Shown here: piece by piece, positions 2 to 18,372 of the stretch | How the letters are laid out: every line of letters starts with the position of its first letter | Position numbering within the stretch: position 1 is the stretch's first letter | The notes under the pieces: model-generated | What the model was told of the DNA's origin: nothing | The model's database searches: none | The model's input: only the letters and a program-made list of their open reading frames with translations | DNA from: Polyangiaceae bacterium | GTDB lineage: Bacteria; Myxococcota_A; Polyangia; Polyangiales; Polyangiaceae | Length of the DNA: 18,372 nt | Assembly: GCA_044225865.1 (NCBI GenBank) | Contig: JBGAID010000021.1 | Coordinates: forward strand, 104,280 to 122,651 | Direction of reading: 5' to 3' | Made by a program: the position numbers and the translations under genes

Positions 2-3000
2 TCGTGGAGTCTCGACCCCAGCCGCCTGCTTATCGACGGCCGGACGACGCGGGAGCTGTTCGCGTTCGTCGAGTCGTTCGCCGAGCACGTGCGCTATCTC
101 GCCGCCGACGAAGGCGCCGACGCGGTCCGCGAGGCGGGCACGTGGGCGCCGTTCGTTCGAGGAGCAGATGTCTCGGTCGCGGACGTCGCGGCCTACGTCG
201 AGCACCCTGAGCGCTTCGACGGCGAGCGCGCGCGCTGGCTCGGCCGCCCGCACTTCGGCCTCCTGCTCACATTCCTGGAGCTTCTCGGGCTCGCGCGCGA
301 CCAGCTCAATGGACTGACGCGCCGGCACCTCGAATACTATTTTCGCGAGGTCCTCGCGATGCGCCCCAAGCCGGCCATCGCCGACTGGACCCCGGCGGTG
401 TTCACCGCCGCGCCGCGCGCGCCCAAGGTGTGGGTGCCCGCCGGCACGGAGCTGCAGGCCGGGCGCGACAGCACCGGGCGGCCACGAATCTACCGAACCG
501 CGCGAGACCTCTGGGTCGGCCACGCCCAGGTCTCTTCGGTTCGATCCGTATTCGCCGATCGGAGAAGGACCCGCCTCGCCGACGTGCGCCGCGACCGCAG
601 CTCGACGCCGAGCGTGGCTTTGAGCGAGATGCTTCAGCTCGCGCTCGGCTCCCCCAACGCGGGTGACCCGGTGCCACCGTTCGATGGCGCGCGGGTCGAC
701 GGCGAATATCTGGCCACCCTCTATCCCATCCTCGCGTTCGCGCGCGACAAGCACGTCGAAGCGCCCCAGCTCTTTCTCGAGCACCACGAGCTGCGCTCGC
801 TCCTGCGACTGAAGCGAAGACGAGACGCCAGCGACCCGGAGTGGCGTGAGATCAATCGCCTCCTCGGCGTCCCCGAGCCGGCCCGTCCCCGCGACTTCGA
901 GGCGAACCTGCTGAAGGCCGCTCAACTGAACGATCTCCACTTCGAGAGCGACGGCTGGCCGGAGATCGAGGACATCGACGATCTGTACGAGAAGCGATTC
1001 CTCGTGAAGACGGTCGGGGGAGAGACACGGTCGGTCAAGAGGTACATCGAGACTCGCCTCGCGAGGATCGGGTACGAGAGCTTCGTCGCCCTGATGCCTA
1101 TCAAGCTGCGCATCGACGCAGAGTGGGCCGAGATCAACCGGCTCTTGGAGCGGGCGGGGCGTCGGCGCTCCGGCCTGCTGTCGTGGGCTCTGCTCCCCGG
1201 GAGCGCGACACGCGCGCAGAAGGCCGACTTCGACGAGAACCTCCGGCGCGCCCTGGAGGTGCGGGTGAAGCTCGAGCCGCGGCAATGGCCCGTCGGCCTG
1301 GCGGCGCTCCCCAGCGACGGGCAACGCTTGGAGAAATACGTCGAGCTCGTCGAGCGGCTCGAGCGTCACTTCTCCTTGCCGGCGGAGCGGGTGGCGGACC
1401 TTTCGGCATTTGCTTCCTCTCTCGACCGTCGCGACGACGCTCTTGGCGAGATCGAGCGGCTGCTCGGGGACGCCCACGCCGAGGCTTGGCGGGCACGCCG
1501 CCGCGCCAGGCTCGAAGAGGTCCGGAGCGGTCGGGACACCCCCGCCGGTTGCGAGGCCGTCGCGAGCTTCGCGCTCGGGGCGACGACGGAGCCCCTCCGC
1601 TGGGACGCGGCGGTTGCCCGCCTGACCGAGCTGATCGGGCGCGCGAAGGCCGACTTGCTGGACCGCTTTCACCGCGAGCTCTCCGCGCCGTTCCGGCCAT
1701 CCCTGTTCGGCTGGCCCGACGCCTATCGCCTGTTCGAGCTCGCGCAGCGCAGGCTCGAAGGCATCGCCGAGCCCGTCGCAGAGAAGATCGAGTGGCACAA
1801 TCTGTATGCCTACGAGGACGCGACCAAGGTCCTCGCCGATCCGGAGCGGTCGACCCGGTGGAGCACCTTTGGCGGACGTCCGGTGGACGCGGCGACGCCC
1901 GGCGCGCCCATGGGCTTCGCCGTTCAATCCCCTCTCCTCTCTCTCAGCCAGGGCCGGCGGACGATCACCCTCACGATCGGGCTGGAGGCCAATGGCTTCG
2001 ATCGGGCGGCCTTCTTGAAGGAGCTCAAGGACGACCCCACAGATGCGCGCGAGCCGACGCCCTCGACTCCGGAACAGATCCGCGCCGCGCTCGACAAGGT
2101 CCTGCTGGTCGAAGGGACCACGGCGAAGGGTTGGACCACGCTCCGACTTGTCGCCGCCACCCTCGCGACGGGCAAGCCCGGCGACGACTACGGGTCGCTC
2201 ATCCGAAAGGCGCGCGGCGCTTCCGACCAGCCCGCCTTGCAGCTCGTCCTCGCGGCCGACGTCGCCGATCCGCCGCTGGCCCCGGCCGCCGCTCCTTCAT
2301 CCCCGACCCTCCGCGTGTGCCTCCGACAGATTCGCGACGAAGAGCGCGGGGGCCAATGGCGCACCCGCTTGGCTCCCTTCGAGCCGCTGCGCGTGAGCGG
2401 CTTGCACCTCGCGGTCGAGGTCGACGGGCTCACGAGCGTCGCTCTTCAGCAGGATGATCGCGCGCTCGATCCAAGAAAGCCATTCGAGCCCTTCGGCAGC
2501 CGCCCGGGCGTGGGAGCTCGACTCTACGTCGCCCATCCGGAGCTCGTGCGCGCGCCGCTCGAGACGCTTCGCTTCACCATCCGGTGGATGGGCCTACCGG
2601 GCAGTCTACCCTATCAATACTACAACTATCCGGTCCAGGGGGCCGCGACCCCGCCTTTCAAGGTCGCTATTCTCCTCGCCGACAACAACGTCGAGCTCCC
2701 CCTCGACAAGGCGGAGCTCTTCTCGCACGACGGCGCGACGGCCCCTTCGAAGACAATCGAGATCGGCAGTGTCCCCGCCGCGATCGAGCGCGCGGCCCAC
2801 GGCTACGTCTATGGACGGCAGGAGCCTCTCGGCTCCGGGCGCGACCTCCGCACCTGGAGCCGCTACCTCATCTGGGAGCTCGACCCGGTCGACTTCGGCC
2901 ACTCCGTGTACCCTGCGGTCGCGGCAGAGCAAGCGCGCGCCCTCGCCGTCGAGCTCGCCAAACAGTCTGCCAACGTCGACGCCAAGAAGTACCGCGTCGA

Positions 3001-16038: not shown

Positions 16039-17775
16039 GAGCTCGATGAAGAGGTCCATGGGCCACCGCTTGCCCTTCGGCCCGCCGGGATCCTGGTGCG
16101 ACGGCAGCCGCTTCGGGTCCGAGGGGTAGAATCTGGACGTCGTCAGGTTGCGCTTGAACGCAAGGAGGCTCGCGTCGGTGACGACCGAATGGAGGGTGAT
16201 GCCCGGAGGCTCGCGCTCGAGCAGCTCCTCGGCGTCCAAGATGGGCGTCAAGGGTATCGACCATCGACGGCACAAGCGGCCCACGAATGGAGCGGCGCGC
16301 TCGAGGACGGGCCGGCCCTCCTTCTCCCAATTCGTCGGCGGGGCGACCTTCTCGCCCGCTTTGTTGAGCTTTGGTCCACCCCTGCCGACGAGCTCGAGCT
16401 GGATCCCAAGGGCATTGGCGCCTGGCGCCGCCCACGCCACCGACGGCTCCTCGACGCATTGAACGATCTGGTCCGGTCCGATGACGTAGTGGGACGAGCT
16501 CTGGCCCTTTTGCGTCTTCGTTTGGTTGGCGAAGAATGTCGCGACCCTTCTCGCCATTCCGGGCACGATGTCGTTCTCGGTGCTGTGGAGGATGGCCCAC
16601 GAGACCGCCTTCCGCGAAGCCTTCGTGAAGTTCGTCGCGGGGATCCAAAGGTCTACCCCCGCCTCGAGGGGCGGGGCTGCCTCGTCTGGGTCGGGCGCCG
16701 AGGCGCGGCCGATCTCCCGCTGCTGCTCGGTGACGGCCCCCGTGGGCGGAAACCCATGGGACTCTTGCCACGCCCTCGTGGCGGCCTCTGTCTTGGGACC
16801 GAACGTGCCCGCCGCGTCCGGCGCGATTCCGATGATGCGCTGCCACTCCTTGACGTCTTCGCCGACGTGACCTCGCCGGAGAACGACGACCTCGCCGCGC
16901 GCGCGGGGCCCGACCGCGCTGACGACCGCTCGGTGATTCGGCGGCGGCACGGCAGGCATCCGCGCCCCGGGCAGGACGCCCTCGTGCGAGAGGTGCTGCG
17001 CGAGCGCGGGGTCGCGGAGCACCGCATCGATGGTGGAGGCCTGGCCGCTCACCCGGCAGGCCGCGCGCACCAGCCTTGCTTTCTGCGAGTAGTCCTCGTG
17101 GTCATGGTCGTGAGCCATCTTGAACGGCTGCACGACCCAGAGCTCGCCGTCGCTCGCGAAGGTGACGGCCTTGAAATTCGCCGGATCGCCAACACGGGTG
17201 TAGCGCCGCAAGGCGCTCAGCGTCGGGACGTGCCATCCATAGTTCGTCGCCGCCTTCGGCCGCTGGAAGATGCCCCTGCTGATCGCCCAATCCTTCCCGG
17301 CGCCAGCGACCAGCCCTTGGCGCCCAGCGACGGCCTGCTCGACGGCGTTGTGATGGGCGAGGTACGCGGCCGGTGACCTGTCGTCGACCCGCTGGGGCCT
17401 CGGCGCGAGGCGCACCTCTGCGTGCCGCCAGATGAGGTCACAGATCTTCCCCGTCGGGAGGACACAGTCGAGCAGATCGGCAATCTGCTGCTGGACCCAC
17501 GCGGAGACGGGGATCCGCACGCTGTCGCTCTCGTCTCCGACGCGCAGCGCATCGGCGCTCACCTCGATCTCGACCGGCCCCGACTGCAATGTCACCCAAT
17601 CGACCCTCGCATGTCCGTCGCGCACGGCGTCGAGCACGGCCTCGATCCGAGCCGCCCCCGGCGCTCGCGGAAGCGAGAGCAACCATTCGGATCCCTTCAC
17701 CGCCCACCTCCCCCGATCGACAGAGACCGCGCTGAACGATGCGCTCGCGGCCCCTACCCACGCGCTCGATACCAA
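16018..17775 (-). CDS. Multidomain peptidoglycan hydrolase, 585 aa: unknown ~285-aa N-terminal domain + PG_binding_1 + N-acetylmuramoyl-L-alanine amidase (amidase_2/PGRP-type).
   Basis: PG_binding_1: 'VVVLRRGHVGEDVKEWQRIIGIAPDAAGTFGPKTEAATRAWQESHGFPPTGAVTEQ'. Amidase_2: 'AILHSTEND...SSHYVIGPDQIVQCVEEPSVAWAAPGANALGIQLELVG...GITLHS'. The start is uncertain. The ORF track uses TTG at 17773-17775, the frame closes at a stop at 17794-17796, and there is no in-frame ATG for ~220 codons. Confidence 0.8.
   Translation of the reverse strand: MVSSAWVGAASASFSAVSVDRGRWAVKGSEWLLSLPRAPGAARIEAVLDAVRDGHARVDWVTLQSGPVEIEVSADALRVGDESDSVRIPVSAWVQQQIADLLDCVLPTGKICDLIWRHAEVRLAPRPQRVDDRSPAAYLAHHNAVEQAVAGRQGLVAGAGKDWAISRGIFQRPKAATNYGWHVPTLSALRRYTRVGDPANFKAVTFASDGELWVVQPFKMAHDHDHEDYSQKARLVRAACRVSGQASTIDAVLRDPALAQHLSHEGVLPGARMPAVPPPNHRAVVSAVGPRARGEVVVLRRGHVGEDVKEWQRIIGIAPDAAGTFGPKTEAATRAWQESHGFPPTGAVTEQQREIGRASAPDPDEAAPPLEAGVDLWIPATNFTKASRKAVSWAILHSTENDIVPGMARRVATFFANQTKTQKGQSSSHYVIGPDQIVQCVEEPSVAWAAPGANALGIQLELVGRGGPKLNKAGEKVAPPTNWEKEGRPVLERAAPFVGRLCRRWSIPLTPILDAEELLEREPPGITLHSVVTDASLLAFKRNLTTSRFYPSDPKRLPSHQDPGGPKGKRWPMDLFIELASAAPD
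16156..16623 (-). other. Amidase_2 (MurNAc-L-Ala amidase) catalytic domain (aa ~385-540).
   Basis: A Zn-ligand His in 'ILHSTE', the 'HYVIG.DQIVQ.V....AW' core and the 'LGIQLELVG' motif are present. Confidence 0.7.
16726..16890 (-). other. PG_binding_1 domain (aa ~296-350).
   Basis: Matches the Lx2Gx2GxxVxxLQxxL...DGxFGxxTxxAVxxFQ consensus. Confidence 0.7.
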
Positions 17776-18372
17776 CGAAAACCAGGAGACCCGTCAACAG
17801 AAAACCTCTCGTTGCCTCGGCGCAGGCGACGCCGCGACCTCTCCTCCGACCGGCTCGAACGATCGCGCCGCTCAGCCTCGGATGTCGCTCCCCGCAATGA
17901 GCGACGCGACGGAGCAGCCGACCATGCCCCTTCGCGAACCCGAATGCTGCTCAGACATGTCCCGCCAATCACGAGCCATGGACAGACCAGTAGTACTGCT
18001 GGCCGGAAGTCCGCTTCCGGATCCGGCAGTACCCAGGAACACAGAAGTCCACGGCCAGACTTCGCGCTTCGTGCCTGGAGCTGCTCCGCCCTTCACTTGC
18101 CGCGCCGTGCGCGGGGCGGAGCAGATCCAGGCACGAACTTCGGGCCGGCAGTAGTGGTCAGTCACGCTCATTGGCTCGGGCGGGTCGGGGTCCGGTGCCA
18201 AGAGGCGAAGGACCGCCGTCCCCGGCGGGCGGGCCCTAACAGGCATCTTACGGGGGTGGCGTTGTTGGCCCAACCGCTCCCTTATGACGCGCGTCGACGA
18301 ACGCCTCGCTGCTTGCCTGGCTTCGACGACGCGCGCCTCCGCGCCCTCTCGTGGGTCGAGGTGGCTCCCATC
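17776..18372. promoter_or_regulatory. ~600-bp apparently non-coding, lower-GC (~60-64%) region upstream of the minus-strand hydrolase gene. It is a likely divergent promoter/regulatory region; a possible + strand gene start lies at 18284 (ATGACGCGCGTC...).
   Basis: There is no ORF with a plausible translation. GC drops relative to flanking coding DNA, and the region carries several inverted and direct repeats (see findings). Confidence 0.4.
18003..18020. other. Perfect 7-bp-stem hairpin ccggaag-tccg-cttccgg.
   Basis: The inverted repeat is seen directly. It is flanked by the repeated word ccggcagta (18023-18031 and 18145-18153). Confidence 0.5.

Follow-up and report, generated by a model that had tools for sequence, protein, structure and literature searches.

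A stretch of 18,372 nts of DNA from a Polyangiaceae bacterium (contig JBGAID010000021.1), referred to below as the window, carries a tight series of genes that probably (at a probability of about 0.82) forms the 3′ half of the operon of an extracellular contractile injection system (eCIS), of the branch of contractile injection systems (CIS) whose solved prototypes are tCIS of Anabaena and AlgoCIS of Algoriphagus. The genes of the series, g1 to g6, all lie on the plus strand (2–16001) and encode, in this order, a Cis11-like baseplate protein, a tail fibre, a Cis12-like baseplate protein, a tape-measure protein (TMP), an AAA+ ATPase and a DUF4157 protein; a seventh gene, g7, is convergent with them. 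All seven are supported by third-position GC periodicity and by their translations, in a window with a G+C content of 64–72%. Because neighbouring genes from g1 to g6 are separated by just −7 to +28 nts, they fit a single operon. The window begins inside g1, and the evidence for the upstream half of the operon is synteny in relatives.

Baseplate, tape-measure and ATPase genes

The first gene, g1 (2–4363, plus strand), encodes a Cis11/Afp11-like baseplate wedge protein, which is cut at its 5′ end, where 28 aa are missing, leaving 1453 of 1481 aa in the window. The part in the window is 100% identical to a full-length protein of 1481 aa (P0001), whose residue numbers are used here for the regions of g1. 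Among solved structures (phmmer against the PDB), g1 matches All3317/Cis11 (2.7e-102), Alg11 (1.4e-94), Pvc11 (3.6e-31) and Afp11 (6.1e-31), and also SalCis11 and a Photorhabdus protein. The Pfam family Baseplate_J is matched near the C-terminus only (aa 1175–1357, E 1e-8), and the PHROG baseplate wedge matches likewise fall in the C-terminal core.

Alignment to the solved homologues divides the protein into several regions. Residues 18–225 correspond to domain I and are followed by an insert of ~415 aa (593–1837, plus strand; aa 226–640), in which the motif ‘EWAEINRLL...DFxxNL’ is duplicated. Further downstream, a spike-cage region (2084–2635, plus strand; aa 723–906) is homologous to the cage domain IV of Alg11, aligning to aa 318–490 of Alg11 (domain E 1.8e-10) and to aa 540–606 of Cis11. 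In Alg11, domain IV consists of residues 278–643 and builds the spike cage (PMC8894135). The gpJ/gp6-like C-terminal core (2969–4285, plus strand; aa 1018–1456) provides the best stretches of alignment to the PDB, with 8.6e-76 to Cis11 and 3.6e-66 to Alg11. No PDB alignment covers the insert, and a permissive Pfam scan of aa 226–640 returned no meaningful match. The insert is kept at its full length in ~30 related loci of several phyla, and partly in cyanobacteria; judged from these alignments, it is a structurally uncharacterised feature of a sub-clade rather than a peculiarity of this locus.

The initial annotation had described the Afp11-like protein as more than twice the usual size, which is correct with respect to Afp11 (607 aa) and Pvc11 (728 aa), the 1481 aa of g1 amounting to 2.0–2.4 times their length, but it does not make the protein exceptional. 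The enlarged Cis11 proteins that have been solved reach 1050 aa (Alg11 of AlgoCIS), 1231 aa (Cis11 of tCIS) and 1323 aa (SalCis11 of SalCIS), and their extra domains make the spike cage (PMC8894136; PMC8894135). Since ~1400–1500 aa is the typical size of Cis11 in this sub-clade, g1 appears large only relative to Afp11 and Pvc11.

The second baseplate wedge protein, Cis12/Afp12-like, is encoded by g3 (5709–9668, plus strand; 1319 aa). Its residues 7–532 match Alg12 (3.1e-62), All3315/Cis12 (2.1e-60), SalCis12 (1.5e-30), Afp12 (5.7e-16) and Pvc12 (3.3e-12) in the PDB (phmmer). The N-terminal ~530 aa are thus the conserved part of the protein, while the C-terminal ~790 aa are specific to the lineage. 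No match to g3 was found in Pfam, NCBIfam or PHROGs, and a permissive Pfam scan of the C-terminal part gave noise only. It is worth noting that in many relatives (L011–L016, L022–L024, L029, L033 and L046) the Cis12 homologue is split over two consecutive open reading frames (ORFs) of ~500–1,100 aa each, which could reflect gene fission or fusion or be an artefact of crude ORF calling.

The product of g4 (9665–11332, plus strand; 555 aa) is a CIS tape-measure protein, Cis14/Afp14-like, which is matched by Pfam CIS_TMP over profile positions 4–463 of 463 (E 2.6e-78). The next gene, g5 (11326–12687, plus strand; 453 aa), starts at an ATG overlapping the g4 stop and encodes a Cis15/Afp15-like AAA+ ATPase with one classic-clade AAA domain (~aa 249–374; Pfam AAA 1.4e-23). 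The order of the two genes, ATPase after TMP, is repeated in relatives. PADLOC returned generic AAA matches only for g5, and the closest solved sequences are the unfoldase domains of VAT, p97 and Cdc48 (~1e-31), a likeness that fits, by analogy, a role in cargo loading such as that of Alg15. Both pairs of genes by which eCIS clusters are recognized, the Cis11 and Cis12 wedge pair (g1 and g3) and the adjacent CIS tape measure and AAA+ ATPase (g4 and g5), are therefore present.

Overall, the types that the initial annotation had assigned to g1 to g6, as the distal half of an Afp/PVC/Cis-type operon, are correct, with agreement between Pfam, PDB and profile searches: g1 and g3 match solved Cis11 and Cis12 proteins, g4 matches CIS_TMP, g5 matches AAA and g6 matches DUF4157, the last of these genes having been proposed, with good reason, as encoding the candidate effector or cargo. 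Among the seven proteins, the one encoded by g7 falls outside the eCIS core.

The fibre, the DUF4157 protein and the 3′ flank

The tail fibre encoded by g2 (4392–5705, plus strand; 437 aa), of Cis13/Afp13 type, has no match in Pfam, NCBIfam or PHROGs, and permissive Pfam scans of both its ends yielded noise only. Its identity comes from its family and from profile searches. The 167 homologues of g2 have an N-terminal segment in common, which covers 23–41% of the query (~100–180 aa) and is typically 60–74% identical, whereas their C-termini are varied and include Peptidase_S74, H_lectin, phage Collar and Collagen domains. Because a conserved N-terminus is joined to very different C-termini, the family pattern is read as that of a receptor-binding fibre. 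In g2 itself, an N-terminal baseplate anchor is followed by two shaft repeats of ~90 aa and by a lectin tip. The anchor motif, R..LK.YF....PTe.nF.DLIDS.LNq.DDG, occupies aa 1–43 (4392–4520, plus strand), and a profile of the first 60 residues of 32 g2 homologues from many phyla matches All3316 (Cis13, 7b5h_AE; 4.5e-8 over aa 1–43), a Photorhabdus tail fibre (9qgo_A, 3.6e-5) and AfpX13 (8uur_A, 7.6e-5). With this conserved anchor motif and variable shaft and receptor-binding domains, g2 has the predicted composition of a Cis13/Afp13-type fibre.

The C-terminal 72 aa of g2 (5487–5702, plus strand) form a lectin-like module of the bulb type (monocot mannose-binding, MMBL) with an intact QxDxNxVxY motif (FQVDGNLVKY). 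The same module ends 35 of 119 metagenomic g2 homologues, and a profile built from 24 such tips matches the bacteriocins pyocin L2 (5.5e-13), pyocin L1 (1e-11) and putidacin L1 (4e-11) as well as the garlic, snowdrop and Gastrodia lectins (1e-10 to 1e-7). Within the tip alignment, Q44, D46, N48 and V50 are invariant and the sugar-binding QxDxNxVxY motif is aligned with that of MMBL proteins, in which it lies in beta-prism II lobes; the tip is accordingly a predicted bulb-type (MMBL, B_lectin) module, and such a module at the end of an eCIS fibre, of the mannose- or rhamnose-binding type by homology, is new here. Pfam B_lectin had no match to g2 in a single-sequence scan. The AlphaFold2 (AF2) monomer model of g2 (pLDDT 67.9) is confident at aa 60–135 and 380–430 and low in the shaft, and its Foldseek matches, used as supporting evidence only, are weak ones to Bdellovibrio fibre beta-helices and to bulb lectins, none better than E 1.2e-3.

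Among the 80 GTDB loci described below, a single one, in a metagenome-assembled genome (MAG) of Kofleriaceae (L057, ~11545–15288), has a g2-like bulb-lectin tip; ORFs overlap its g1 homologue, which suggests assembly frameshifts. In Nannocystaceae relatives, additional fibre genes of the g2 type follow the tape-measure gene (L007:22240–24410; L009:21852–23621), with H_lectin and Peptidase_S74 tips. Because these extra fibres have the same N-terminal anchor as g2, one machine may carry several fibre types. Assemblies from five unrelated SRA runs also contain the exact 437-aa g2 protein, as does a contig of 1.9 kb (WBZT01057516.1) of the highly fragmented assembly GCA_009612855.1. The organism or a near-identical strain thus turns up in more than one dataset, in GCA_009612855.1 possibly as a contaminant or an associate. 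Nannocystaceae, Kofleriaceae, Polyangiaceae and Sorangium supply the closest named homologues of g1, g2 and g6, which, taken with the G+C content, points to a probable host in Myxococcota (class Polyangia); g1 is at most 51% identical to any GTDB species representative.

The last gene of the series, g6 (12684–16001, plus strand; 1105 aa), encodes a protein with a DUF4157 (‘eCIS core domain’) and is the candidate cargo or effector gene. Pfam eCIS_core/DUF4157 matches aa 87–162 (E 5e-31), and the residues of its HExxH motif, H152, E153 and H156, are invariant among 59 aligned homologues, which are 28–61% identical over the protein from end to end. Furthermore, the best 150 representatives of the family in a library clustered at 50% identity all have E < 1e-190, and most of them cover nearly the whole profile. 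The AF2 model built with the 59 homologues (mean pLDDT 79.8) has a disordered N-terminus (aa 1–80, pLDDT <50), a DUF4157 fold (aa 87–160), an alpha/beta domain (aa 230–455) and an all-beta C-terminal region (14055–15923, plus strand; aa 458–1080) ending in four amphipathic strands of ~28 residues each. Within the ‘disordered’ N-terminus, a four-cysteine motif, QRxCxCG...GxCxxCxxK...LQR (12786–12869; aa 35–62), is conserved in the consensus of the 59 homologues, which points to a small knuckle for metal binding and not to disorder alone.

A beta-beta-alpha motif resembling that of HNH nucleases (13746–13913, plus strand; aa 355–410), C..DHVVELQ.QGTN....N..LD...N..SG, lies in the central part of g6. 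Its residues D364, H365, E368, Q370, G373, N379 and N388 are invariant in the 59 homologues and map to a predicted strand-strand-helix unit of the AF2 model. Pfam HNH is matched by 15 of 21 members of the family (best E 6e-4) and HNH_5 by 5 of the 21. With an N-terminal domain (NTD) that is disordered, a DUF4157 domain with HExxH, an ordered C-terminal domain (CTD) and a gene directly after that of the ATPase, g6 has, as far as sequence and model indicate, the make-up of a DUF4157-type cargo like Cgo1 and Cgo2 of AlgoCIS. Also new here is the family itself, a large one of ~1100 aa, which is conserved over its full length and unites DUF4157, an HNH-like motif and an extensive all-beta domain.

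In close relatives, the g6 homologue follows the TMP and AAA genes, as in the window. Five distant homologues, in Sphingomonas, a Bryobacteraceae MAG, a Myxococcaceae MAG and two metagenomic contigs, are placed differently: their genes come directly after Pvc16_N and WHD-AAA genes (5 of 5) and directly before tube-initiator, VgrG, gp25 and baseplate genes (4 of 5), and CIS_TMP has no match in the five loci. Read from gene content, these loci represent a second eCIS operon architecture, in which the g6 family again stands beside the ATPase, a position also new here. Modules of the g6 family are furthermore embedded in giant proteins, P0430 (6000 aa) and P0453, P0463, P0468, P0470 and P0472 (2254–2438 aa), with up to 18 stretches matching the family. 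Because the modules recur inside these proteins, the all-beta region may be a repeatable building block beyond the ~1100-aa architecture.

Convergent with g6, at a distance of 16 nts, g7 (16018–17775, minus strand) encodes an N-acetylmuramoyl-L-alanine amidase with matches to Pfam Amidase_2 (6.7e-12), Pfam PG_binding_1 (2.7e-6) and PHROG endolysin families (up to 3e-14). Its likely start is a GTG at 17700, preceded by a GGAGG-like site, and a region of ~300 aa at its N-terminus lies outside the family matches. No homologue of g7 was seen in the 80 related loci, most of which stop near the ATPase gene. In the locus of the closest g6 relative, a different PG_binding_1 protein is encoded after the DUF4157 gene (L095:5860–6873); g7 shares only PG_binding_1 with it and was for this reason rejected as a conserved lysis or release partner of the system, a contribution to particle release through lysis being no more than conceivable. 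The last 600 bases of the window (17776–18372) have no clear coding periodicity, confident gene, Rfam match or promoter-like site, and an Rfam scan of the whole window returned no match.

Related loci and the reading of the locus

Related loci were collected from GTDB species genomes by alignment to g1. With 574 confirmed loci the clade is very widespread, and the best 80 were analysed. Both Cis11 and Cis12 homologues are visible in 72 of them, and in 52 of these 72, one to three g2-like genes lie between the two, the median Cis11 ORF being 1420 aa long. In the remaining 20, Cis11 is shorter (median 1165 aa) and directly adjoined by Cis12, and 2.7–4.8 kb lie between Cis12 and the TMP gene, which is an Afp-like arrangement. 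Loci with the order of the window are spread over at least six phyla, with members in Myxococcota, Acidobacteriota, Chloroflexota, Beta- and Gammaproteobacteria, Cyanobacteria and Bacteroidota. A catalogue of eCIS fibres placed fibre genes downstream of Afp11/12 and Tail_P2_I homologues in ~90% of cases, listed Baseplate_J (Afp11) among the upstream neighbours and described short N-terminal anchor domains (PMC12923769).

A gene-by-gene reading was made of three relatives: L096, which is the closest (53% identity in g1), L008 and L007 (Nannocystaceae strain ST9). In all three, a Pvc16_N cap gene opens the upstream series, which proceeds through sheath, three gp19 tube genes, DUF5908, CIS_tube, VgrG, a small ORF, gp25 and CIS_spike_tip directly to the g1 homologue, from which it continues as Cis11, fibre, Cis12, TMP and AAA. 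A 272-aa ORF lies between the cap and sheath genes in L007 and L096. Over the 80 loci as a whole, gp25 was detected in 76, VgrG in 74, sheath in 64 and cap in 59. Wherever they occur, these genes are colinear and lie upstream of the g1 homologue; the shortfalls are due to contig ends. By comparison with these relatives, sheath, tube, spike and gp25 genes are expected upstream in this genome as well.

Several claims of the initial annotation can be judged from these loci. That the fibre gene stands between the Afp11-like and Afp12-like genes holds true, but the order is not an unusual one, being that of Anabaena tCIS (PMC8894136) and of the majority of the related loci. The prediction of sheath, tube, spike and gp25 genes upstream of the window agrees with their colinear presence in relatives, synteny being its sole support for this locus. 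The system was further called divergent and probably uncharacterised: it is divergent relative to Afp and PVC, yet falls inside a known clade, and it is this member, rather than the clade, that is without experimental study. No experimentally studied eCIS of Myxococcota was found in a literature search, though the search was loose and not exhaustive.

The series could in principle be the tail module of a myovirus prophage, as the Baseplate_J and PHROG baseplate wedge matches of g1 and the adjoining endolysin-like g7 might suggest. In that case, according to the initial annotation, capsid and terminase genes would be expected nearby and matches to eCIS families would be absent. Such matches were found, CIS_TMP, a Cis15-type AAA ATPase and DUF4157 being eCIS markers (Geller et al.), whereas the window has no capsid, terminase or T6SS membrane-complex genes, and capsid and terminase genes likewise have no match in the flanks of L007, L008 and L096, which contain a histidine kinase, AraC regulator or glutamine synthetase gene. 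In addition, tblastn against 50,697 phage records gave no match to g1 or g4, and g7 is convergent and not conserved beside related loci. Because the relatives carry a complete eCIS with cellular flanks and no phage match was obtained, a prophage origin is very unlikely, and it was rejected on the phage-record result for g1 and g4 and on the cellular flanks of the three relatives.

By homology to solved systems, the machine could work as follows. Six heterodimers of Cis11 (g1) and Cis12 (g3) would encircle the spike as the baseplate ring, and the enlarged Cis11 would provide a spike cage and a further, helical insert of ~415 aa. Trimers of g2 would dock through their conserved N-terminal motif, for which the docking site in tCIS is the C-terminal extension of Cis11, and the bulb-type lectin tip would bind a mannose- or rhamnose-type glycan on the target cell. 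The length of the tube would be set by g4, while the AAA+ unfoldase g5 would aid assembly and thread cargo into the tube. Loaded through its disordered N-terminus, g6 would be delivered upon sheath contraction and would bring with it a metallopeptidase-like DUF4157 domain, a putative nuclease domain of HNH-like type and the large all-beta domain.

The membrane-anchored tCIS is among the closest solved relatives of g1, g2 and g3, and a CIS of the same clade could act inside the producer or attached to it, like tCIS, T6SSiv and the cytoplasmic CIS of Streptomyces, upon lysis, contact or programmed cell death. Myxobacteria kill prey by contact and undergo developmental lysis, which counts in favour of such a mode. 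All three modes occur among members of the clade (PMC8894136; PMC8894135), and in S. davawensis a DUF4157 nuclease effector works within the producer's own life cycle (PMC11126660). However, no transmembrane (TM) helix is predicted in g1 to g4 or g6, and no 19-residue window exceeds 1.6 on the Kyte-Doolittle scale in g2 or g3. Thus g3 has no strongly hydrophobic segment. In addition, g2 ends in a lectin module where Cis13 of tCIS ends in a TM helix. The Peptidase_S74, H_lectin and Collar tips of the g2 family are furthermore typical of fibres that recognize foreign cell surfaces. Because of the lectin tip, the polymorphic tips of the fibre family and the absence of a predicted TM segment from g2 and g3, a free, target-binding particle is favoured over one anchored as in tCIS, and a non-extracellular mode of action appears improbable.

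Several observations nevertheless weigh against the eCIS reading or against parts of it. The upstream half of this locus is known through relatives only, and the nearest relatives with context are just 50–53% identical in g1. The lectin module of g2, with ~72 aa, amounts to about two lobes with one intact motif, whereas a full MMBL domain is three-lobed. The g6 copy of the window stays below every Pfam HNH threshold and no solved HNH enzyme was recovered with g6 by PDB profile or fold search, for which reasons the motif is termed ‘HNH-like’ and a nuclease function, predicted from sequence conservation and the model, is called plausible. Finally, the conservation of g6 over its full length in at least 150 clusters at 50% identity and the fixed slot of its homologues beside the ATPase in another eCIS architecture are atypical of a variable toxin, which makes a structural or assembly role of g6 conceivable.

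According to this last alternative, which is rather unlikely, g6 would be not an injected toxin but a conserved assembly or structural factor, such as a tape-measure-like protein, a tube-lumen scaffold or a membrane-inserting translocator, and variable effectors would be encoded elsewhere. The slot of its distant homologues, in loci with no CIS_TMP match, is that of the tape-measure-related Tme in S. davawensis (PMC11126660), and the long amphipathic C-terminal strands of g6 resemble those of membrane beta-barrels; on the side of a cargo stands the domain layout common to g6 and Cgo1/Cgo2. A related proposal, to be taken as speculative and at low odds, is that the g6 family is a previously unrecognized, widespread eCIS component rather than a polymorphic toxin. 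Lying in the tube lumen, the protein would be the first to be ejected; it would insert its beta-hairpin domain into the membrane of the target and either deliver a nuclease or act as one, and it would take the tape-measure slot where CIS_TMP is absent. Combined with the MMBL tip, which resembles the rhamnose-binding pyocin L, the proposal would point to a myxobacterial eCIS aimed at bacterial prey.

As a locus, the eCIS described here is ordinary, being one more of a clade present in hundreds of genomes. The features worth keeping are the MMBL lectin tip, the 415-aa insert of Cis11 and the DUF4157/HNH-like/all-beta family at its fixed position on the ATPase side. The compact bulb-lectin tip leads to a testable receptor hypothesis and would be a small module for retargeting engineered eCIS particles. 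Most DUF4157 proteins have no annotated second domain, and the g6 family therefore bears on what DUF4157 proteins do. Predatory and developmentally complex Myxococcota are, moreover, a natural place to ask what eCISs serve for.

Comparison with known systems

The tip of g2 is related to the lectin-like bacteriocins pyocin L1 and L2 and putidacin L1 (LlpA) and to plant MMBL lectins (5.5e-13 to 1e-7), with which it shares the conserved QxDxNxVxY. In contrast to the tandem domains of the bacteriocins and to the free plant lectins, the g2 module has ~72 aa, in which one motif is intact and one lobe degenerate, and it terminates a fibre that is presumably trimeric.

Another partial parallel is Tme (BN159_7576) of Streptomyces davawensis, in which DUF4157 is combined with a tape-measure-like region and an EndA-like H-N-N endonuclease, and which associates with the spike and the tube initiator (Nagakubo et al. 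2024; PMC11126660). Like g6, Tme is a large CIS-associated DUF4157 protein with a nuclease-type H-N-N motif, and the distant g6 homologues occupy the same operon slot, behind the ATPase gene and ahead of the genes for tube initiator and spike. The two proteins, compared beyond DUF4157 by description, otherwise differ: Tme has ~2250 aa, is mostly disordered or helical with predicted TM helices and carries its nuclease at the C-terminus, whereas g6 has 1105 aa, a central HNH-like motif, an all-beta C-terminus and no TM helix. In addition, the window has a separate CIS_TMP gene.

Afp of Serratia (PDB 6rao) and PVC of Photorhabdus (PDB 6j0n) have the same set of late genes, 11, 12, 13, 14 and 15, and the anchor motif of g2 is common to AfpX13 (7.6e-5) and the Photorhabdus fibre (3.6e-5). 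They are, however, far more distant, with matches of ~1e-31 to g1 and 1e-12 to 1e-16 to g3. Afp11 and Pvc11 are both without a cage, the fibre gene follows gene 12, and the cap gene (16) comes after gene 15 instead of at the 5′ end of the operon, where it lies in the relatives of the window. The cargos of PVC, moreover, have no DUF4157.

AlgoCIS of Algoriphagus machipongonensis (PDB 7aeb; Xu et al. 2022; PMC8894135), which belongs to subtype Ib (PMC8894135), is considerably more similar. Alg11 (1.4e-94) and Alg12 (3.1e-62) are close homologues of g1 and g3, the cage domain IV of Alg11 aligns to g1, and an Alg15-type ATPase is present in both systems. Cgo1 and Cgo2 have the layout of disordered NTD, DUF4157 and CTD that is found in g6, the likeness being one of domain layout; they sit in the tube lumen, and their loading needs the NTD and the ATPase Alg15 (PMC8894135). 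The main difference concerns the fibre. In AlgoCIS, this is Alg19, modelled by Xu et al. with Ig-like and TssK-like parts and for which no homologue was found in AFP/PVC or metamorphosis-associated contractile structures (MACs) (PMC8894135), whereas the window encodes a fibre of Cis13 type.

In tCIS of Anabaena sp. PCC 7120 (PDB 7b5h), the genes are arranged as all3317 (Cis11), all3316 (Cis13) and all3315 (Cis12), the C-terminal extension of Cis11 contacts the Cis13 trimer, and the hallmark of the system is a C-terminal TM helix in Cis13, conserved together with the Cis12 extension and the Cis19 crown (Weiss et al. 2022; PMC8894136). The locus has the cis11-cis13-cis12 order in common with tCIS, and a Cis11 enlarged by a cage and extra domains; Cis11 is the best solved match of g1 (2.7e-102), Cis12 a top match of g3 (2.1e-60), and the anchor profile of g2 finds Cis13 (4.5e-8). 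It departs from tCIS in that Cis13 is a membrane anchor of 154 aa, whereas g2 has a lectin tip and neither g2 nor g3 has a segment of the hydrophobicity expected of such an anchor. Furthermore, g1 is 250 aa longer than Cis11 and has the 415-aa insert, which does not align to Cis11, no Cis19-like crown gene lies within the window, and the host belongs to a different phylum. Taken together, the homologies place the locus far nearer to tCIS and AlgoCIS than to Afp or PVC, and it appears to be a new, uncharacterised member of the tCIS/AlgoCIS-like clade, within which its gene order and the size of its Cis11 are the rule.

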